A DNA stretch of 64,000 nt from an uncultured Gemmatimonadales bacterium (GTDB lineage: Bacteria; Gemmatimonadota; Gemmatimonadetes; Longimicrobiales; RSA9): NCBI GenBank assembly GCA_963741945.1, contig CAVUKA010000006.1:224001-288000 (forward strand), given 5' to 3'. The notes under the pieces are model-generated. The model made no database searches and was not told the origin of the DNA. It saw nothing but the letters and a program-made list of their open reading frames with translations. This document shows positions 24,055 through 33,779 of the stretch, piece after piece (within the stretch, counting starts at the first letter, position 1; the number at the start of each line of letters is the position of its first letter). Both the position numbers and the translations under genes were made by a program.

Positions 24055-24384
24055 GACGACGGCAGCGCACGAGGAGCGCGCGGAAGCGGCGGCGGGCCGG
24101 AGGGGCTGCGCCTGTCGCAGGTCCCGCTGGGCGAGGAGGTCGAGCTGGACTCCATCGAGCTGCCGCCCGCGGAGCTGGAAGCGCTTCTGGAGCGAGGGCT
24201 CCTCCCCGGCTGCCGGATCTGCACGGTTCGTCGTTCACCGTTCGGTGATCCCATCGTGCGAGTGGACGGGACGGTGCTCGCGCTGCGCCGGGAAGTGGCG
24301 AGGTGCCTGTGCGTCCGTCGCCCGCCGTCGCCGGGCGGAGGCGGTGACGGGGGCGGGTGGCGGGGGCGAGGGCGAGGGCGGTGA
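24055..24384 (+). CDS. feoA: Ferrous iron transport protein A (start unresolved: CTG 24106 or 1-nt frameshift)
   Basis: Absent from ORF track. Manual translation LRLSQVPLGEEVELDSIELPPAELEALLERGLLPGCRICTVRRSPFGDPIVRVDGTVLALRREVA; stop 24382-24384 overlaps feoB GTG. Confidence 0.85.
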   Translation, partial: DDGSARGARGSGGGPEGLRLSQVPLGEEVELDSIELPPAELEALLERGLLPGCRICTVRRSPFGDPIVRVDGTVLALRREVARCLCVRRPPSPGGGGDGGGWRGRGRGR

Positions 24385-26375
24385 GCCCGGGAAGCGCCGG
24401 GGCGACGTGTCACGATCGGGGTGGCGCGGCCGTGGCAACGGCGAATGGGGCGGGACCGGACGGCCGCACGGGTGGAGCTCCACCGCTCGTCGCCCTGGTG
24501 GGGCCACCGAACGCGGGGAAGACCACGCTCTACAACCAGCTGACGGGTCTTCGCCAGAAAGTGGCGAACTACCCGGGCGTGACGGTGGAGAAGCACGTCG
24601 GTCGCGTGCGCCTGGAAGGCGAGCGCGAAGTGCGGCTGGTGGATCTGCCGGGCGTGAACGGGTTCACGGGCCGGACACTGGACGAACGGGTGACGCGGGA
24701 CGTGCTGGCGGGGCGCGTCGAGGGGCTTCCCCGCCCGGACGCGATCCTGGCCATCGTGGACGCCACGCGGCTCGAGACGCAGCTCATGCTCATCGAGCCG
24801 ATCCTGGAGATGGGCCGCCCCACCCTGCTGCTCCTGAACATGGTGGATGAGCTGGAGGCTCGGGGCGGCCGGATCCAGGATGGGGCGCTGGCCGAGCGCT
24901 TCGGCGTCCGCGTGGCCCGGACCAACGCACGCGCGGGCCACGGACTGGAGCGCGTCCGTGAGTTCCTCTCCGCCGTCGCCGCGGGCGAGCTGGACGGCGG
25001 GACGCCTGCGTGGAACGGCCGGTCCCCCGCGGCGCCCGGCGAAGAGACCGCCGTGGCGGGCTTCGGGGCGCGCAGGAACCTCCCGGTGCTCGACGCGTTC
25101 GCAGAGCGCCGCGCCCGGGTGCGCTCGGCGGTGGAAGCGGCGGACCATCGGCCGCCCGAGCCCTCCGCGCTCAGCGAGCGTCTCGACGCCATCCTCCTGC
25201 ATCGCGTGTGGGGGCCGCTCGTGTTCCTGGCCGTCGTGCTCGTGGTCTTCCAGGCCATCTTCACATGGGCCGCGCCGCTCATCGACGGCCTGGAGTGGAT
25301 CGTGGCCACGTCCGGCGAGTGGCTGGCGCCGCACCTCCCGTCGGGCTGGGTGCGGTCGCTCATCATCGACGGCGTGTGGTCCGGCGTGGGCTCCGTCGTC
25401 GTATTCCTTCCCCAGATCCTCCTGCTCTTCCTGTTCCTGGCAGTCCTGGAAGACTCCGGCTACATAGCCCGCGCGGCGGTGATCGCGGACCGCCTCATGT
25501 ACCGGGTGGGATTGCAGGGTCGAGCCTTCCTGCCGCTCATCAGCGGATACGCCTGCGCCGTCCCGGCGATCCTCTCGGCCCGCACGGTGGAAAACGAACG
25601 GGACCGCCTGGCCACGATCTTCGTCACGCCGTTCATGACCTGCTCGGCCCGACTCCCCGTGTACGCGCTTCTGATCGCGGCGTTCATCCCGGCGAAGCCG
25701 CTGCTGGGCCCCGTCTTGGGCTCACGCACCGCCGTGCTCCTGGGACTCTATGGACTGGGACTCATCGCGGCCATCGGGACTGCGTTCCTCCTCAAGCGGA
25801 CGCTGCTGAGAGGTGGGGAGACGGGCTTCATGATGGAGCTGCCGCCGTACCGGCTGCCATCCCCGAAGTCGGTGGGCCTGCGGCTGCTGGACCGGAGTCG
25901 CATCTTCTTCAGTCGCGCCGGGAAGATCATCTTCACGGTCACCATCGCGCTCTGGCTGCTCACCCAGGTGCCGCGGACGCCGCAGGGCCCACCTCCCATC
26001 GGCGACAGCGTGCTCGGCCGCGTCGGCCACGTGATCGAGCCCGTCATCGAACCGCTCGGGTTCGACTGGACGGTGGGCGTCGGGCTGGTGTCGTCACTGG
26101 CCGCGCGGGAGGTGATCGTGGGGACGCTCGGCACCATCTACGGCGTCGAGGACGCGTCCGAGTCCTCCATCTCGCTGCAGTCCAATCTCCGCCAGCACCT
26201 GGACACGGGGGCGGCCGTGGCGCTGCTCGTCTTCTTCGCCTTCGCGTTGCAGTGCACGTCCACCATCGCCGTGATGCGCCGCGAGACCGGCGGGTGGAAG
26301 TGGCCGGCCATCCAGTTCGGCTACATGCTCGCGATGGCCTTCTCAGGGGCGTGGCTCGCGAACTGGCTCCTGTAA
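24381..26375 (+). CDS. feoB: Ferrous iron transport protein B
   Basis: G1 GPPNAGKT, G2 NYPGVTV, G3 DLPG, G4 NMVD; LEDSGY, GYACAVP, PFMTCSARLP, MELPPY, AAREV. Confidence 0.96.
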   Translation: MSPGSAGATCHDRGGAAVATANGAGPDGRTGGAPPLVALVGPPNAGKTTLYNQLTGLRQKVANYPGVTVEKHVGRVRLEGEREVRLVDLPGVNGFTGRTLDERVTRDVLAGRVEGLPRPDAILAIVDATRLETQLMLIEPILEMGRPTLLLLNMVDELEARGGRIQDGALAERFGVRVARTNARAGHGLERVREFLSAVAAGELDGGTPAWNGRSPAAPGEETAVAGFGARRNLPVLDAFAERRARVRSAVEAADHRPPEPSALSERLDAILLHRVWGPLVFLAVVLVVFQAIFTWAAPLIDGLEWIVATSGEWLAPHLPSGWVRSLIIDGVWSGVGSVVVFLPQILLLFLFLAVLEDSGYIARAAVIADRLMYRVGLQGRAFLPLISGYACAVPAILSARTVENERDRLATIFVTPFMTCSARLPVYALLIAAFIPAKPLLGPVLGSRTAVLLGLYGLGLIAAIGTAFLLKRTLLRGGETGFMMELPPYRLPSPKSVGLRLLDRSRIFFSRAGKIIFTVTIALWLLTQVPRTPQGPPPIGDSVLGRVGHVIEPVIEPLGFDWTVGVGLVSSLAAREVIVGTLGTIYGVEDASESSISLQSNLRQHLDTGAAVALLVFFAFALQCTSTIAVMRRETGGWKWPAIQFGYMLAMAFSGAWLANWLL

Positions 26376-26393
26376 CAGTCCGGCCTCCGCAAC

Positions 26394-26936
26394 TCAGTTC
26401 ATCGATGGATCGTACGGCATCCGCGACAGACGCCGGTACTCCGGGCCCTTCCGCTCGAGCACCCGCGCCCACAGCGTGTCCGGCGCATCCGTGAAGACGT
26501 CCTCCTCCCGCGCCGGATCGACGATCCAGGAGCCCGTCTCCATCTCCGCCTCGAGCTGACCCGGACCCCAGCCCGCGTGTCCCACGAACACGCGCGCGCG
26601 ACGCAGCACCGGGAGGACCTCCGGGGAGATGTCCCCGGTCAGGAAGCCCACCGTGCCGAACACCGGGACGTCGGCCAGGGCGGCGTGCGCCAGCTCGGCC
26701 AGCAGCACCGGCTCCCGCGGCTGGACCGGACCGCCCCGGTACACGAGCTCACCCGGGCCCGCCAACGCGCTCAGCGGCGGGAACGCCGCGGCCACCGGGA
26801 CGTCCAGCGGCCGGTTCAGCACCACGCCCAGCGCCCCGTCCTGATTGTGCTCGCCCACGAGCACCACCGTGTGGCGGAAGTTCGGATCGAAGAGGCCGCC
26901 GCCGGAGATCAGCAGCCGTCCGCGCAAGCTCTTCAT
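26394..26936 (-). CDS. YqgE/AlgH family protein (DUF179)
   Basis: DPNFRHTVV, GALGVVLNRP, YRGGPV, GHAGWGPGQLEAE, DPSMN. Confidence 0.93.
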   Translation of the reverse strand: MKSLRGRLLISGGGLFDPNFRHTVVLVGEHNQDGALGVVLNRPLDVPVAAAFPPLSALAGPGELVYRGGPVQPREPVLLAELAHAALADVPVFGTVGFLTGDISPEVLPVLRRARVFVGHAGWGPGQLEAEMETGSWIVDPAREEDVFTDAPDTLWARVLERKGPEYRRLSRMPYDPSMN

Positions 26937-27074
26937 GGCGACAAGTTTAGGCCCTGCGGCTCGTCACGGGCAAGCGTCCTGCTCCTTGCTTTGTAGCGCA
27001 AAGCGCTTTACTGTGCACGCGGCAACGCAGGCCGCTGTGGCCGCGCTGCCGCGTGCCCCGGACGGGTGGTGACC

Positions 27075-28958
27075 ATGACGGCATCGTGGGCGAGGCGGGC
27101 GGGCGGATACCTGGTGGACGCGCTGCGCGGTGTCCGCGAAGCTCCCATCGAGATGGTCGCCACGGCGACGGTGGCGGCGACGTTCTCGTGGGCGCTGGAG
27201 TCGCAGGGGTCCGGGACGGCGTTCCGTGCGTGGTGGGAGATCGCCGTGCCGTGTGCGCTGGTGCTGGTGATCGCCTGGACGGGGACGCTGCTGCACGCCA
27301 TGGGTCGCTGGGACGCGACCCGGCGCTGGGCGTTCACACTGGCCGGCGCGCTGGCGGTGGCGATCTACGCGTGGACGGTGGTGGATTTCCGGTACGAATC
27401 GGAAGCGTGGAGAGCCGGGCTGCTGCTGGCGGCCGCGGTGGCGTGGCTGGTTGCGCTCCCCGCGTTCGGGGGGCGAGGCCGGGGTGAAGCTGGCGGGGAG
27501 CGGATCGGGCGGATGCGTCGGGTGGGCGAGCGTTTCGCGCTGCGGGCGATCGGGGCGGTGCTTTACGGTGCGGTCCTGTTCGCCGGTCTGGCGCTGGCGC
27601 TGGCGGCCGTGGACAACCTGTTCGAGCTGGGCCTGGAGGAGCAGATCTACGGTCACGTCTGGGGGTGGATCGCGTTCGTGCTGATCCCGTGGATCGTGCT
27701 GGGCGGGCTGGACGACTACGTCCTTGCCGCGGACCGGGCCGAGGCGGACGCGATCCCGGCGACGTGGTCGGGGGTGAGTTCCGTCGCCTACCGCATCATC
27801 CTATGGCTGGTGCCGCCGCTGCTCGCGCTCTACACGCTCATCCTGTACGCGTACGCGGCCCGTATCCTGGTGACGGGGGAGCTCCCGAAGAACCTGGTCT
27901 CGCCGATGGTGCTGGCGGCGGGCGGGCTCGCGGCGCTGGCGCTCATCCTTTTCGATCCGCGGCCGGGGCGTGGCGGGCTGGCTCGCGGGCTCCGGCTCGC
28001 CCCCGCGCTGTTCCTCCCGCTGGCGCCGGTCGGCTATCGCGCGCTGCTGCTGCGCGTGGACCAGTACGGCTGGACGGAGTTCCGGGTGGTGCGCGTGGTC
28101 GTGCTGAGCGCGCTCGCGGCGCTGGCGATCGGGGCGACGGTCCAGCTGGTGCGACGCCGGGCGTTCTCACTCCACGCGGCGCCTCTCGTGCTCGCGGCCG
28201 TCTTCCTGCTGAGCGCCGTGGGCCCATGGAGCGCGCTGGCCATATCGCGGGACAGCCAGCAGGAGAGGCTGGCCGCGGCGCTGACGGAGGTGGGGGTGCC
28301 GCCCGGGGCGACGTCCGTCCGCGCAGCCGACCGGCCCCCGACCGGCGCAGGCCCCGACTCGGCGCACACCGTGCCCGCGGCCACGTACGAGCGGATCCGG
28401 GACAGCGCGCGCTATCTGTCCAGCCACTTCGGCCGCGAAGCGCTCCCCGGCGGTGTCGCCGGTTTCGCGCACGACCACCCCGGCAGCGTCGACTACGCGG
28501 CACAGCTCGGCCTCCGCCCGGATGCGCTCCCCGCGCGCGAAGGGCTGAGCGTCGGCGGCACGCTGTCGCGGGGTGCGCCGCTCCGGCTCGAGGGAGGGCT
28601 GGCGTACCGCGTCGAATGGACGAGGGGGCCCCGCGGGGAGGAGCGTCCCGGCGGGGCCGTCGAGCCCGCGGGCCGGAGCCCCATGACCGTGGCCGTGCGC
28701 GACGGCCAGCGCCTGGAGCTGAGCGTGGGGAGCGCACTCCTGACGGCGGACCTCGGCCCGCTCATCCGGGAGCTCGAGCGTACGGCGGACCCACGGGAGC
28801 CCGGGCGGCTGCCGCCGGATCGCGCGGTCGTGCCCCTGGTGGGCGGGAGCGGCGCCCGGGCCGGTGAGCTCGTGGTGTGGCAGATCTGGGCTCAAGCCGA
28901 TTCCGCGGGCTGGCGGCTCCAGCGAGTGGAGGCGCTGGCGGTGGTGGGCGCGAACTGA
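27075..28958 (+). CDS. DUF4153-like multi-pass membrane protein
   Basis: About 10 TM helices; LYTLILYAY, GELPKN, RVDQYGWTEFR, GPWSA..SRDSQ motifs. Start 27066 or 27075. Confidence 0.8.
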   Translation: MTASWARRAGGYLVDALRGVREAPIEMVATATVAATFSWALESQGSGTAFRAWWEIAVPCALVLVIAWTGTLLHAMGRWDATRRWAFTLAGALAVAIYAWTVVDFRYESEAWRAGLLLAAAVAWLVALPAFGGRGRGEAGGERIGRMRRVGERFALRAIGAVLYGAVLFAGLALALAAVDNLFELGLEEQIYGHVWGWIAFVLIPWIVLGGLDDYVLAADRAEADAIPATWSGVSSVAYRIILWLVPPLLALYTLILYAYAARILVTGELPKNLVSPMVLAAGGLAALALILFDPRPGRGGLARGLRLAPALFLPLAPVGYRALLLRVDQYGWTEFRVVRVVVLSALAALAIGATVQLVRRRAFSLHAAPLVLAAVFLLSAVGPWSALAISRDSQQERLAAALTEVGVPPGATSVRAADRPPTGAGPDSAHTVPAATYERIRDSARYLSSHFGREALPGGVAGFAHDHPGSVDYAAQLGLRPDALPAREGLSVGGTLSRGAPLRLEGGLAYRVEWTRGPRGEERPGGAVEPAGRSPMTVAVRDGQRLELSVGSALLTADLGPLIRELERTADPREPGRLPPDRAVVPLVGGSGARAGELVVWQIWAQADSAGWRLQRVEALAVVGAN

Positions 28959-28973
28959 GGGCTTGCGGCCGGG

Positions 28974-29002
28974 TTGCCGCCGTCCTTAGGTCCGCCTAAA
29001 CT
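28974..29002 (+). promoter_or_regulatory. Sigma70-like promoter overlapped by TTAGG-N4-CCTAA operator
   Basis: TTGCCG(28974)-N17-TAAACT(28997); palindrome TTAGGTCCGCCTAA at 28986-28999. Confidence 0.6.
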
Positions 29003-29093
29003 CGGTCATCGGTCCGCTGCGGGGACGGCGTGCACGCGCGCACTCCCGGGGGCGGTTCCGGGACTGTTCGATTCCAGGTCAGGAGGTCGCGCA

Positions 29094-29810
29094 ATGGAAG
29101 AAGTCGGCTGCGCTCGACCCACGGGAGGACCCGTCGGCGCCGCGCCGGCGGACGGGGAGGACGCGCTTCCGCAGTCAGCCACGCAGGAGGAGGCGAAGAT
29201 GATCAAGGTGGGCCAGAAGGCGCCGGACTTCACGGCACCCGCATATCACGAGGGGAAGTTCACGGCGGTTAAGCTGTCGGACTACCTCGGCGGGTGGATC
29301 GTCCTCTGCTTCTACCCGGGGGACTTCACGTTCGTCTGAGCGACGGAAGTGTCTGCGGTCGCAGACAAGCATGCAGTATTCCAGGAAATGGGCGTACAGG
29401 TGCTCTCCATGAGCACCGACAGTGTCTTCGTGCACAAGGTGTGGAACGAGGCGGAGCTGTCGAAGATGGTGGACGGCGGCGTTCCCTTCCCCATGCTCTC
29501 GGACGCCGGCGGCAAGGTGGGAGCCGTCTACGGCGTCTACGACGAAGCCGCGGGCGTGGACACGCGCGGGCGCTTCATCATCGACCCGGACGGCGTGGTG
29601 CAGGGCTTCGAGGTCCTCACCCCTCCGGTGGGGCGGAACGTGGCGGAGACGATCCGGCAGCTCCACGCCTTCCAGCTGGTGCGGGAGACCGGTGGTGCGG
29701 AGGCGACGCCCTCCGGCTGGCACCCGGGCAAGCCCACGCTGAAGCCGGGGCCGGACCTGGTCGGTCGGGTCTGGGAGGTCTGGAGCCCCCGTATGGAGGA
29801 GGAAGGCTGA
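29094..29810 (+). CDS. prxU: Selenocysteine-containing peroxiredoxin (AhpC/Prx1-like, PrxU type), 238 aa, Sec82 = TGA 29337-29339
   Basis: AGGAGG SD at 29081; ORFs 28974-29339 and 29349-29810 share a frame; reads [15 protein letters not shown] (PxxxTxxU); downstream [28 protein letters not shown] intact. Confidence 0.93.
29350..29367 (+). promoter_or_regulatory. Putative bacterial SECIS element
   Basis: Perfect 7-bp stem TGTCTGC-GGTC-GCAGACA after a 10-nt spacer from the TGA; loop begins with GG. Confidence 0.8.
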
Positions 29811-29814
29811 GGGA

Positions 29815-30558
29815 TCAGGGGAGCCGCGTGTAGCTGACGGTGATGCCCACCATGTAGCCGGTTCCTGCCTGGAAGATCCGTCGCAGCCCGAGGTGCACGT
29901 CGAGTCCCCGCACCCCGACCTGCTGCGCCGCCACCCCGACGCCGGTGAACACGGCGATCCCGGTGGACGGCGCGGCGGAGGAGCAGCGGATGTCCAGGAG
30001 GGCGCCGGGCGAGACGAACGCGGCCACGCGGACGGTCCGGAGCATCGCGATCGAGAACGGCGTGGAGAGGTCCACGGTGCATGCGTTCACCCCGGGGAGC
30101 ACCCCGGGCGCGTAGCCCACGCCGAGCACGGTGCCCAGTGTGCTCGTGGCCGTGTAGTCGCCGATCAGTCCGGCCAGCGTGGGTCCCGCCGTGATGACGT
30201 TCAGCCGCGCGCGGGCGCCGAACATGGCATGGCCGCCGCATTCGGACCCGGCGAGCTCGCAGTCGCGCTGGACGTACCCTGCCGTCACGCCGAATGTCGA
30301 CCCGCCGAGCCACTGCAGGTCGACGCCCGCGCCGTACGCCATGCGGAGCGGACCGCCCCCGCGCAGCTCGCCGACCACCAGCCGGCCGGCCCAGTAGCTC
30401 TTGTTCCGGGCGGCGGGCATGGGCAGCGCCAGCGGCGGGAGCGCGCCGACGGGGGTGGATCTCAGCCGTACGGCGCGCACGGAGGAAGACGCGTCCTGCG
30501 CTGCCGCCGGGGGCGCCAGCAGGAGGAGCGCGGCCGCGACCCACAGGCGCCTACTCAT
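29815..30558 (-). CDS. Secreted hypothetical protein, probable outer-membrane beta-barrel
   Basis: Signal peptide ending AAA-Q; Gly/aromatic amphipathic strands; ends GITVSY; overlaps upstream stop by 8 nt. Confidence 0.65.
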   Translation of the reverse strand: MSRRLWVAAALLLLAPPAAAQDASSSVRAVRLRSTPVGALPPLALPMPAARNKSYWAGRLVVGELRGGGPLRMAYGAGVDLQWLGGSTFGVTAGYVQRDCELAGSECGGHAMFGARARLNVITAGPTLAGLIGDYTATSTLGTVLGVGYAPGVLPGVNACTVDLSTPFSIAMLRTVRVAAFVSPGALLDIRCSSAAPSTGIAVFTGVGVAAQQVGVRGLDVHLGLRRIFQAGTGYMVGITVSYTRLP

Positions 30559-31630
30559 GGGGCTCCAGCCAGCGCGTGTAGACGAGCCCCCCCGCACCGT
30601 GACGGTCGTAGCGGAACACGCGCAACAGCACGCCCCGGGGCTTCAGGATGTCGAGGCGCATGAAGCCGAGGCTCTGCTGCGCCACGTAGTAGCTCTCCCT
30701 CATCCAGACCGCGCACGCCGTCTTCGAGCCCGCGCCGCTCACGAGCAGGTAGGGCAGCGTATGCCCGCTGCGCAGGACCTGCAGGACGTGCTCGTGCCCC
30801 GCGGCGTACACGAGTGGAGGATGGTCGGCGAAAGCGCTCGTGATCGAGTCACGCATCGTGCGGTTCGCCCTGGAGACGATGTCCTGGTTGCGCCCCCCGA
30901 AGCGGTGGAACGGTCCGCTCGGACCGCAGTACCCGCCGTGGGTTCCGCCTGTCATGAGCGGGTGGTGCCCGGCCACCACGGTGACCCGGTCCTCCCGCCC
31001 TGGCGCCGTCATCGCCCGCAGCTTCGCCGTGACCTCGCCCGGGTCCGAGGTGCAGTCGGACCGGGCGTCCCGGACAATGTAGTCGTGCAGCCACCACTGC
31101 GTGTCCAGCAGCACCAGGTGCAGCCGGCCCGTGTCCACCGCCACCGGCCCCGGGCAGCCGTTTGCGGGGAGCATCCGGATCGGGCGGCCGCCCGCGAGGG
31201 ACGCGAGCATCTCCTGCTCCAGCCGCACGGACCGGAGCCCGAACACTTCGCCGCTCGCCCAGTCGTGGTTGCCCGGGATGAAGATGGCACGCACGCCCGC
31301 CGGGACCGACCGGAGCTGCCCCCGCAGGCGACGCCGGGCGTCCGCCCGCTCCGCCGCACCCTCTTCCCGCGCCCCCACCGGCTGGATCCCGTCCGGGTAG
31401 ACGTTGTCGCCCAGGAACAGGATCAGCGACCGCTCTGGCGCTTCGGCCGCCTGGACCGCGAGCGAATCGAGCGGGGTGCTCAGCGCGCGGCGGGGATCCG
31501 GCTCGCCCGCGTCGCCCACCAGGAAGAGCGTCGTCTCGATGGACGACGGCTCCGGCTCGACCGGGCGCACGGCGCCGTGGCAGCCGGCGGCGGCGGCGAG
31601 GAGGAGGGTGATGGACAGGTGTGGGCGCAT
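30551..31630 (-). CDS. Metallophosphoesterase lipoprotein (calcineurin-like)
   Basis: Lipobox AAGC; VGDAG, GDNVYP, GNHD, GHHP, GHEH motifs. Confidence 0.9.
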   Translation of the reverse strand: MRPHLSITLLLAAAAGCHGAVRPVEPEPSSIETTLFLVGDAGEPDPRRALSTPLDSLAVQAAEAPERSLILFLGDNVYPDGIQPVGAREEGAAERADARRRLRGQLRSVPAGVRAIFIPGNHDWASGEVFGLRSVRLEQEMLASLAGGRPIRMLPANGCPGPVAVDTGRLHLVLLDTQWWLHDYIVRDARSDCTSDPGEVTAKLRAMTAPGREDRVTVVAGHHPLMTGGTHGGYCGPSGPFHRFGGRNQDIVSRANRTMRDSITSAFADHPPLVYAAGHEHVLQVLRSGHTLPYLLVSGAGSKTACAVWMRESYYVAQQSLGFMRLDILKPRGVLLRVFRYDRHGAGGLVYTRWLEPHE

Positions 31631-31741
31631 GGGTGTCGAATTCGGTGACCGTCCGGTCCGCTGCGCAGGTTGCGGACCAGCGCCGCGGCCCGGCCCGCGG
31701 TCGGCGGGTCAGTCCCGCTCCGTGCGAGGGGCGAGGCCCGG

Positions 31742-32956
31742 TCAGCCGAGCGGCGCGAGCTCCACCTTCACCCACCCCTGCTCCCGCCGGTCGAACGCTT
31801 CGAACGCCTCGATGGCGTCGCTGAGGGGCTCGAGCTGCGTGAGGATGCGCGACGGCTCGAACACGCCGCCGGCCACCATCTGGACCAGCTCCGGGATGTA
31901 CTTGCGGTGGTGGCAGTTCCCCATGTTCAGCGACAGGTTCCGGTTCATGGCCTCGCCGATCGGGAACGTGGTGGTCGTGCTGTCGTAGACCCCGATGATG
32001 GAGAACGTCCCGGCCTTGGCCACCGCCTTCACCCCCCAGCGCAGCACCTGGCTCGGCGCGTCCCCCGGCTTCCAGAGATCGCCGTCCGGATTGCGATCCG
32101 GGGCGTTCCGCTCCACTTCCTTCCGGAACTCCTCGGCGTGCTGCGCGGCTTTCTCCGCCGCAGGGCCCGCGTGGGCGTGCTCGGCGTCGATCCCCACCGC
32201 GTCGATCACGCGGTCGGCCCCGATCCCCCCGGTCAGCTCGCGGATCGTTTCGACCGGGTCCTCCTCGTCGAAGTTGATGACCTCCGCGCCCTGCTCACGG
32301 GCCATGTCCAGTCGGGATGGGACCGCGTCCACGGCCAGCACCCGGCCCGCGTCCATGAGGAGCGCGCTGGCGATGGCGAACTGGCCCACGGGCCCGCAGC
32401 CGAAGACGGCCACGGTGTCTCCGGGCTCGATCTCGGCCATGTCGGCTCCGAACCAGCCGGTGGGGAAGATGTCGGAGATGAGGATGGCGTCGTCGTCGCT
32501 CACGCGGTCCGGCAGCTTCACCAGCCCGACGTTGGCGAAGGGGATGCGGGCGAACTCGGCCTGGAGCCCGTCGAACGGACCGCTGGACGCGGGGCCGCCG
32601 AAGAACGCAGTGCCCGCCTGGGGGCCGTTGGGGTTCGCGTTGTCGCACTGCGCGTAGTAGCCCGCCCTGCAGTAGGAGCAGTAGCCGCACGCGATCGTGG
32701 ACGGGATCACCACGCGGTCGCCCGGAACCAGGTTCCGGACGCCGCGCCCCACCTCCTCAACCACCCCCACGCCCTCGTGGCCGAGGATCGTGCCCTCTCG
32801 CATCCCGGAGAGCGTGCCGCGTACCATGTGCAGGTCCGTTCCGCAGATGGCGCTCGCCGTGATCCGCACGATGGCGTCCGTCGGCTCCCGGATCTCCGGC
32901 TCCGCCACGTCCTCCATCCGGATGTCCCCGATCCCGTGCCAGACCACTGCCTTCAT
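31742..32956 (-). CDS. Zinc-dependent alcohol dehydrogenase (formaldehyde dehydrogenase-like, MDR family)
   Basis: MKAVVWHG; ICGTD, GHEGVG, CGYCSYC..C, SDIFPTG, GCGPVG; GGAGGG SD. Confidence 0.93.
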   Translation of the reverse strand: MKAVVWHGIGDIRMEDVAEPEIREPTDAIVRITASAICGTDLHMVRGTLSGMREGTILGHEGVGVVEEVGRGVRNLVPGDRVVIPSTIACGYCSYCRAGYYAQCDNANPNGPQAGTAFFGGPASSGPFDGLQAEFARIPFANVGLVKLPDRVSDDDAILISDIFPTGWFGADMAEIEPGDTVAVFGCGPVGQFAIASALLMDAGRVLAVDAVPSRLDMAREQGAEVINFDEEDPVETIRELTGGIGADRVIDAVGIDAEHAHAGPAAEKAAQHAEEFRKEVERNAPDRNPDGDLWKPGDAPSQVLRWGVKAVAKAGTFSIIGVYDSTTTTFPIGEAMNRNLSLNMGNCHHRKYIPELVQMVAGGVFEPSRILTQLEPLSDAIEAFEAFDRREQGWVKVELAPLG

Positions 32957-33184
32957 CGCGCCCTCCCGCTCGGTGATGGAAGGCGCCGACTTCCTGACCG
33001 CTCCGGAGTCGGCGCGCTGAGCGCCTGTGAAGGCGCAGCCCGCGTGCCAGCCCCCGCCGATCAGGGCGCAGCGCTGCACCGCCTCCACGTCACGGCGGGG
33101 GCGTGCCCCTTGTATCCCCCGGGCTTCCGCCGCATGCTCCGCGTGCGAGACCAGCACCCCCATCCTCCGGACGGAGCGCTCACA

Positions 33185-33703
33185 ATGCCGATCTCCAGCC
33201 GCGGTGCCGCCCTCATCGCCCTGACCAGCGGACTGCTCGCCGCCGGCGCCACGGCCGCGGCCATGAGGCGGCCGGAGCCTGCGGCTGCGCCCGCGTCCAG
33301 CCGGGCGCACCGCGTGCACGAGATGGGCGCCGCCGTGATGCCGTTCGCGCTCGACCGGACCACGCACGTGTTCGAGATGACGGTCGACGGCGGCATCCAG
33401 GACGTGGTGGCGAAGGACGCGGCCGACACGGCCACGATCCGGCTCATCCGGCAGCATCTCGGGCACGAGGCCGCACGGTTCGGACGGGGCGACTTCGAGG
33501 ACCCGATGGCGCTGCACGGAGCCGCGATGCCCGGCGTGCAGGATCTCGCGGCCGGAGCGGACCGCCTGGAGGTCGAGTATCAGCCGCTTCCCGACGGCGG
33601 CCGGATCACCTACCGAACTGCGGATCCGGCACTCGTGACGGCCGTGCACCGGTGGTTCGGCGCCCAGCTCTCCGACCACGCCGCCGACGCCACGTATCGC
33701 TGA
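33185..33703 (+). CDS. Secreted His/Met-containing hypothetical protein
   Basis: GGAG SD, signal peptide, VMPFALDRTTHVF, IRQHL, GDFEDPMALHG..MPG, HRWFGAQLSDH. Confidence 0.75.
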   Translation: MPISSRGAALIALTSGLLAAGATAAAMRRPEPAAAPASSRAHRVHEMGAAVMPFALDRTTHVFEMTVDGGIQDVVAKDAADTATIRLIRQHLGHEAARFGRGDFEDPMALHGAAMPGVQDLAAGADRLEVEYQPLPDGGRITYRTADPALVTAVHRWFGAQLSDHAADATYR

Positions 33704-33779
33704 CCTCGGCCGCGCGGACTCCCGGTTGGAGCTTCCGGGGCCGCGCATCGACACGGACCCCGGTGCCTGCGGGCGCGGC

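Follow-up and report, generated by a model that had tools for sequence, protein, structure and literature searches.

Predicted selenocysteine peroxiredoxin gene prxU with a candidate SECIS hairpin in a high-G+C genome of the Gemmatimonadota

The first peroxiredoxin that contains selenocysteine (Sec) was reportedly described by Sohling et al. in 2001, from Eubacterium (Peptoclostridium) acidaminophilum. That paper (Biol Chem 382:979) is cited in the text of PMC13188914 and PMC7231847. Twelve Sec-peroxiredoxin genes had already been counted in 2006, according to the text of PMC1794560, and a table of prokaryotic selenoproteins in PMC13188914 includes peroxiredoxin (PF00578, TxxU). PrxU is an already catalogued, experimentally founded selenoprotein family, of which the gene described here is an orthologue.

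Recoding of UGA in bacteria depends on an RNA hairpin, and in the fdhF element of Escherichia coli a bulged U and the nucleotides G23 and U24 have a role in SelB binding. We analysed a 64,000-nucleotide (nt) stretch of a contig, called the window throughout, in which a sequence-only reading had proposed a UGA-recoded peroxiredoxin with a visible selenocysteine insertion (SECIS) hairpin. On sequence evidence, we place at about 95% the probability that this gene is a functional prxU, encoding a Sec-peroxiredoxin built on the scaffold of the Prx1/AhpC proteins.

The closest experimentally founded relative is prxU of P. acidaminophilum DSM 3953, which is annotated in RefSeq on an 809-kb megaplasmid and matches the gene in the window with 62.7% identity over 95% of the query (tblastn, E 5e-86). 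The two genes have in common the TGA codon, the offset of the hairpin from it, an N-terminal GCARP peptide, an internal AAGGAGG that precedes a Met codon, and a Cys that precedes FYPG. They differ in the hairpin, which reads UUUCAGC-AGUU-GCUGAAA in P. acidaminophilum, whereas G–C and U–A stem pairs and a GGUC loop are found here. The hosts differ as well: the prototype comes from a strict anaerobe, whereas the present gene is carried by a member of the Gemmatimonadota with 70% G+C and four homologues of haem-copper oxidase subunit I.

Two further systems frame the comparison. The SECIS element of E. coli fdhF (UGA140, NC_000913.3) likewise follows its UGA directly, as a hairpin within the coding sequence, and has an identical apical GGUC; this loop occupies positions 22–25 in fdhF and 21–24 here (the U of UGA being position 1), one nucleotide nearer the UGA. 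The stem in the window is a short, perfect 7-bp helix from which the bulged U of fdhF is absent. With the typical 2-Cys peroxiredoxins of the Prx1/AhpC type, the encoded protein shares the fold family (as judged by sequence), the PxxxTxxC geometry, a conserved Arg and a C-terminal GWxPG segment, but it has Sec in place of the peroxidatic Cys, Thr205 in place of the resolving Cys, Cys72 in place of a Phe and an extra N-terminal arm of 35 residues that contains Cys6.

Gene layout, family and active site

When UGA82 is read as Sec, the gene is a single frame (Table 1) that matches the NCBIfam equivalog NF040737 (peroxi_PrxU) with 409.5 bits (cut-off 270), residues 4–233 aligning with positions 2–232 of the 233-position profile. 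The sequence-only reading had held that the family is not new and that both halves of the gene are in frame and undegraded, and this nearly end-to-end match bears out both points. Pfam matches of the read-through protein are AhpC-TSA (5.9e-37) and 1-cysPrx_C. Under translation table 11, the gene falls into two open reading frames (ORFs; 28974..29339 and 29349..29810), the splitting by standard gene callers that had been foreseen. Both halves are coding-like, and the G+C content at third codon positions (GC3) of the gene is 0.866, compared with 0.862 for the genome. Of 80 orthologues in which the equivalent first start was located, 70 likewise have a Shine–Dalgarno-like motif 5′ of it.

Table 1. 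Features of the prxU locus, in coordinates of the window
Feature	Position	Strand	Remarks
Shine–Dalgarno AGGAGG	29081..29086	+	7 nt 5′ of the first prxU start codon
prxU coding sequence (predicted)	29094..29810	+	ATG at 29094; 238 codons, counting UGA82 as Sec, and a stop
Conserved N-terminal peptide, residues 5–15	29106..29138	+	Cys6 at 29109–29111
Internal Shine–Dalgarno-like AGGAGGAGG	29185..29193	+	within the prxU coding sequence
In-frame ATG, Met36	29199..29201	+	candidate second start; the resulting form would have 203 residues, with Sec as residue 47
Cys72 (LCFYPG)	29307..29309	+	family-specific, 10 residues N-terminal of Sec; invariant in 77 sequences
Active site P75-G-D-F-T79-F-V-U82 (PxxxTxxU)	29316..29339	+	aligns with PxxxTxxC of Prx1/AhpC structures
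UGA of predicted Sec, residue 82 (FTFV-U-ATE)	29337..29339	+	TGA in 83/83 orthologues
Candidate SECIS hairpin	29350..29367	+	arms 29350–29356 (TGTCTGC) and 29361–29367 (GCAGACA); loop GGUC 29357–29360
Arg158, conserved peroxiredoxin active-site arginine	29565..29567	+	invariant in 77 sequences; aligns with the RG(L)FIID Arg of Prx1 structures
Thr205, at the canonical position of the C-terminal resolving Cys	29706..29708	+	EATPSGW, compared with EVCPAGW of 4fh8 and 5zte
Ordinary UGA stop of prxU	29808..29810	+	TGA is stop here and Sec at codon 82

The in-frame UGA falls at the peroxidatic position itself, with P75, T79 and U82 following the pattern PxxxTxxU, which confirms the placement made in the sequence-only reading. 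The nearest structures in the Protein Data Bank (PDB) are typical 2-Cys Prx1/AhpC proteins (4fh8, AcePrx-1; 5zte, BAS1; and 1qmv, human Prx2), with E values of 2e-44 to 1e-41. These homologues align from residue 36 or 38 to residue 219 or 226, and residues 1–35 have no counterpart in any of them; at the position of Cys72, the closest carry Phe.

Cys6 and Cys72, both invariant among 77 aligned sequences, are the only cysteines of the protein. The C-terminal resolving Cys with its VCP motif, by which typical 2-Cys peroxiredoxins are defined, is absent, and T205 at that position is nearly invariant in the PrxU family. As Thr205 replaces the resolving Cys, we do not file the gene under the typical 2-Cys peroxiredoxins, although the scaffold is shared. 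In the mechanism that we propose, a selenolate at PxxxTxxU, positioned by Thr79 and Arg158, would reduce peroxide, and reducing equivalents would come from thioredoxin, as the name of the PrxU family suggests. With Thr in place of the resolving Cys, and Cys6 and Cys72 kept throughout the family, a protein thiol may act first on the oxidized selenium.

A scan of positions 28800–30000 returned no promoter and no terminator. Upstream of prxU (24357–28958 of the window) lie genes for FeoB, an AlgH-like DUF179 protein and a DUF4153 membrane protein; 3′ of it, on the opposite strand (29815–33754), are genes for a 260-residue protein with no Pfam match, a metallophosphoesterase and a zinc-dependent alcohol dehydrogenase. 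No redox partner gene adjoins prxU within these two intervals. Nor was a conserved operon partner found: among seven neighbour proteins searched for in flanks of about 3 kb, DUF179 is the only one that recurs, at 1 of 11 loci of the Gemmatimonadota type.

The UGA codon and its hairpin

We compared 83 orthologues, made up of the gene in the window, two copies from related genomes and the best 80 of 115 relatives obtained by contig search. The Sec codon is TGA in all 83, which span at least 10 phyla. In 78 of them, this was established with a pattern that allows any residue at the position, and in the other 5, which have DYTFV instead of DFTFV, by eye.

The hairpin that the sequence-only reading had pointed out is present as described: a perfect 7-bp stem with a 4-nt loop, starting 10 nt 3′ of the TGA. 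The minimum-free-energy and centroid folds both include it, and on its own it has a folding energy of −9.7 kcal/mol. Its stem uses codons that are rare in the genome, TCT accounting for 2.8% of Ser codons and GCA for 5.4% of Ala codons across 1,839 long ORFs, as had been noticed from the letters. Among 80,193 TGA trinucleotides genome-wide, 269 are followed at a distance of 5–20 nt by a perfect hairpin with a 7-bp stem and a 4-nt loop, and 12 by one with an NGUN loop. The folding energies of a 64-nt and a 51-nt stretch are unexceptional relative to shuffled sequences (z of −0.84 and −0.77, respectively); the proven SECIS element of fdhF scores 0.10 in the same test, which therefore has no power here.

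In an ungapped 45-nt alignment of the 83 orthologues, 8 pairs (columns 14–21 with columns 24–31) form a helix, and of its 664 cells 99.1% are paired. Changes on both sides occur at three of these pairs: 15–30 (UA in 49 sequences, GC in 15, CG in 13 and AU in 2), 18–27 (GC in 53, AU in 22, UA in 4 and GU in 4) and 21–24 (AU in 45 and GC in 38). All six columns involved are third positions of codons. The innermost pair, represented in the window by G29357 and C29360, covaries as an eighth pair around a GU that is invariant in all 83 sequences. The covariation score is 0.378, compared with a mean of 0.140 for shuffled alignments; none of 500 shuffles scored as high, a statistic that overstates the significance because the orthologues are related to one another. 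Two controls are independent of this kinship: partners slid out of register score 0.05–0.11, and the combinations at the varying pairs are complementary only.

The copy on a plasmid of a Chloroflexota strain illustrates the same constraint, as its residues differ (ELTAVAVK) and its stem is nevertheless a perfect 8-bp helix around GGUC. In seven distant Cys-type peroxiredoxin paralogues, retrieved by pattern from 14 related loci, 3–6 of the 8 hairpin columns pair; this is a weak control. A scan of positions 29000–29900 with Rfam gave chance-level matches only (E 1.9–9.5, far under the gathering scores) and none to a bacterial SECIS family. Judged by its location directly 3′ of the UGA, its compensatory changes and its G/U apical loop, the hairpin has the properties expected of a bacterial SECIS element, and the RNA-level constraint that had been suspected from the unusual codons is upheld by the alignment.

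We propose that SelB, with GTP and Sec-tRNA(Sec), would bind the GU-loop hairpin as the ribosome reaches UGA82, so that Sec would be inserted and translation would not stop. The second UGA (29808) would terminate translation; folding of the sequence 3′ of that stop (29808–29810) gave no short hairpin at the position of a SECIS element.

Release factor and SelB are known to compete at Sec codons, and UGA82 might accordingly act mostly as a terminator, with an N-terminal fragment of 81 residues as the main product and full-length Sec-peroxiredoxin as a minor, selenium-dependent one. Against this, the 156 codons 3′ of UGA82 are under strong purifying selection, with many invariant columns among 77 sequences. 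Such selection implies that regular translation through UGA82 is required, and we regard predominant termination as very improbable.

Still less credible is that the TGA arose by nonsense mutation or through faulty assembly, in which case the gene would be a pseudogene or would really encode Cys. In favour of this, prxU is split under table 11, and the read support consists of one contig run at a depth of 2.4×. An identical TGA recurs in every orthologue, however; both halves look like coding sequence and together match the PrxU profile from end to end; and the hairpin covaries. The sequence-only reading had named TGC or TGT at 29337–29339 as a finding that would count against Sec. The low-depth contig run, which may come from the source sample and covers the region at a depth of about 2–5 with gaps at 29142–29237 and 29750–29781, lists no difference at these three nucleotides.

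Two starts and the N-terminal cysteine arm

The arm that sets the protein apart from its structural homologues contains a conserved peptide, which is in frame in 79 of the 83 orthologues and in which G5, C6, R8, P9 and G11 are invariant (77 sequences). Synonymous variation beneath this peptide is free, with all four codons for Gly, both for Cys and six for Arg in use. Free synonymous change under a conserved peptide indicates translation of the extension and selection on its amino acid sequence. The stretch of around 20 residues that follows is variable, and leads to Met36, which is again invariant in the 77 sequences.

Within the 14 nt just 5′ of Met36, 79 of 83 orthologues have a GGAG, compared with 886 of 15,852 other codon positions in the same genes (5.6%); for AGGAG, the figures are 65 of 83 and a background of 0.64%, with a spacer of mostly 6–9 nt. 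The hexapeptides encoded over this internal motif are nearly all different (78 distinct among 83). As GGAG is kept while the hexapeptides vary, it is the RNA that is conserved, in keeping with a ribosome-binding site.

The prototype prxU of P. acidaminophilum has the same two-start layout. Counted from its equivalent Met (Met38 of the RefSeq sequence), Sec is residue 47. We take U47 to be the numbering used for the purified P. acidaminophilum PrxU, which would fit a count from Met38. Taken together, these patterns indicate that prxU probably has dual initiation, with a long and a short isoform.

A more specific scheme can be put forward only tentatively: the gene would yield two isoforms, a short one of 203 residues from Met36 and a long one with the GCxRP arm, and either the arm or Cys72 would resolve Sec82 through a selenenyl-sulfide. 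This combination is possible but, in our estimation, rather less likely than its absence, and we offer a part for the Cys arm in recycling as a hypothesis only. An AlphaFold2 (AF2) model of the monomer (pLDDT 83.6, pTM 0.79) has pLDDT values below 50 at residues 1–32 and is therefore uninformative about the arm. A full-text search on PrxU found no paper on a two-start prxU. The layout, with its N-terminal Cys, provides a modest lead on how Sec-peroxiredoxins that lack the usual resolving Cys are recycled.

Sec decoding in the host genome and distribution of prxU

The assembly from which the window was taken comprises 4.09 Mb in 8 contigs, is 96.7% complete and has a G+C content of 70.0%. A genome search found each of the genes on which decoding of Sec depends. 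tRNA-Sec reaches 72.5 bits (gathering score, 47) and is identified by ARAGORN as tRNA-SeC with anticodon tca. selA (568.8 bits) and selB (348.7 bits) are both over their cut-offs and without internal stops, and selB covers positions 2–574 of a 581-position profile, including the C-terminal part. selD (394.8 bits, and 400.5 bits with TIGR00476) lies on contig 5 at 624574–625728; it too is over its cut-off and has, as its one internal stop, an in-frame TGA of its own, in SHGAG-U-ACKLG; the host selD is itself a selenoprotein gene. The host thus appears to have the complete Sec-decoding trait (tRNA-Sec, selA, selB and selD), as the sequence-only reading had predicted from one gene.

TGA is also the commonest ordinary stop of the genome, ending 1,214 of the 1,839 long ORFs. 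That TGA ends most long ORFs, and prxU itself, implies that UGA has undergone no general reassignment in this host. A genetic code in which UGA means Trp (code 4) or Gly (code 25), with residue 82 accordingly not Sec, would agree with the W that stands at the Sec position in most of the closest public proteins, but in view of these stops, of the complete Sec machinery and of the chemical meaninglessness of W at a peroxidatic site we give it next to no probability.

The practical bearing of the gene is mainly on annotation. Among the 120 closest near-full-length public homologues, the residue at the Sec codon is Trp in 102, Cys in 11, Gly in 1 and Ser in 1, and 5 have no match to the motif. As W would be chemically meaningless there, the Trp entries are best read as gene-caller artefacts, made on short contigs under a code in which TGA is Trp; the 11 with Cys may be genuine Cys forms or may have C standing for Sec. 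Plain gene callers thus split or mistranslate prxU, and as a consequence the antioxidant capacity and the selenium dependence of such genomes are under-read.

Another Sec-peroxiredoxin of this genome, belonging to the BCP/PrxQ type, is encoded on the minus strand of contig 3 (687131–687862), with TKG-U-TVQ at the active site and a hydrophobic N-terminal leader. It shares the TxxU site and the decoding machinery with PrxU, but differs in its score against the PrxU profile (46 bits), its best match (thiol peroxidase, NF006960), its leader and its hairpin. A home-made genome screen for TGA followed by a hairpin gave 127 candidates, which do not include prxU and do not amount to a census of the selenoproteome; among 10 hand-picked candidates, the real selenoproteins were selD and one BCP-like peroxiredoxin only.

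Four homologues of haem-copper oxidase subunit I exceed the Pfam cut-off (contig 5, 458847; contig 3, 124078 and 128067; contig 7, 117584), which makes it unlikely that the host is a strict anaerobe. The oxidases suggest aerobic or microaerobic respiration in the carrier of a selenoprotein that has been reported mostly from anaerobes. What prxU adds is a Sec-peroxiredoxin in a genome with such oxidases; general knowledge of Sec decoding and of peroxiredoxins is unchanged by it.

The sequence-only reading had also suggested that the host lineage may be new. For Sec use as such, this does not hold. Of 401 Gemmatimonadota genomes sampled evenly across the phylum, 321 gave a selA match (318 over the cut-off; the tally includes two unpublished genomes), and NCBI has already named SelA in metagenome-assembled genomes of the Gemmatimonadota and Longimicrobiales. 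Among the best 120 relatives of the host SelA, nine bear organism names, all of them Gemmatimonadota, Gemmatimonadetes or Longimicrobiales; like the record titles of the closest PrxU copies (below), these names point to a host within the Gemmatimonadota. Given the frequency of selA and the SelA proteins named by NCBI, Sec use is not new to the Gemmatimonadota, and PrxU is merely rare there. A literature search found no paper on Sec in Gemmatimonadota, and no word beginning with Gemmatimonad occurs in the text of PMC13188914, PMC13326102 or PMC9312934, the supplements of which may list the group.

For PrxU, the suggestion of novelty stands in a weak form. The gene occurs in 4 of the 401 genomes, each time with one TGA, and in 3 of 41 closer relatives (a denominator that includes four unpublished genomes, all negative). 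The rarity of PrxU where the Sec trait is common fits patchy inheritance. Among the best 80 of 115 relatives, the closest copies, at 76–83% identity, come from records titled Gemmatimonadota, Gemmatimonadales or Gemmatimonadaceae. When the 83 proteins are placed in a quick maximum-likelihood tree, 11 of them form a clade (SH-aLRT 99), which consists of the protein from the window, those from the two related genomes and eight with Gemmatimonadota titles; one more Gemmatimonadota protein lies outside it. We draw neither a donor nor a direction of transfer from this tree.

Of 72,556 plasmid records searched with tblastn, only 2 gave a prxU match at E ≤ 1e-40. One is the 809-kb plasmid of P. acidaminophilum (NZ_CP007453.1) and the other is a 180-kb plasmid of a cold-seep Chloroflexota strain (CP069395.1).
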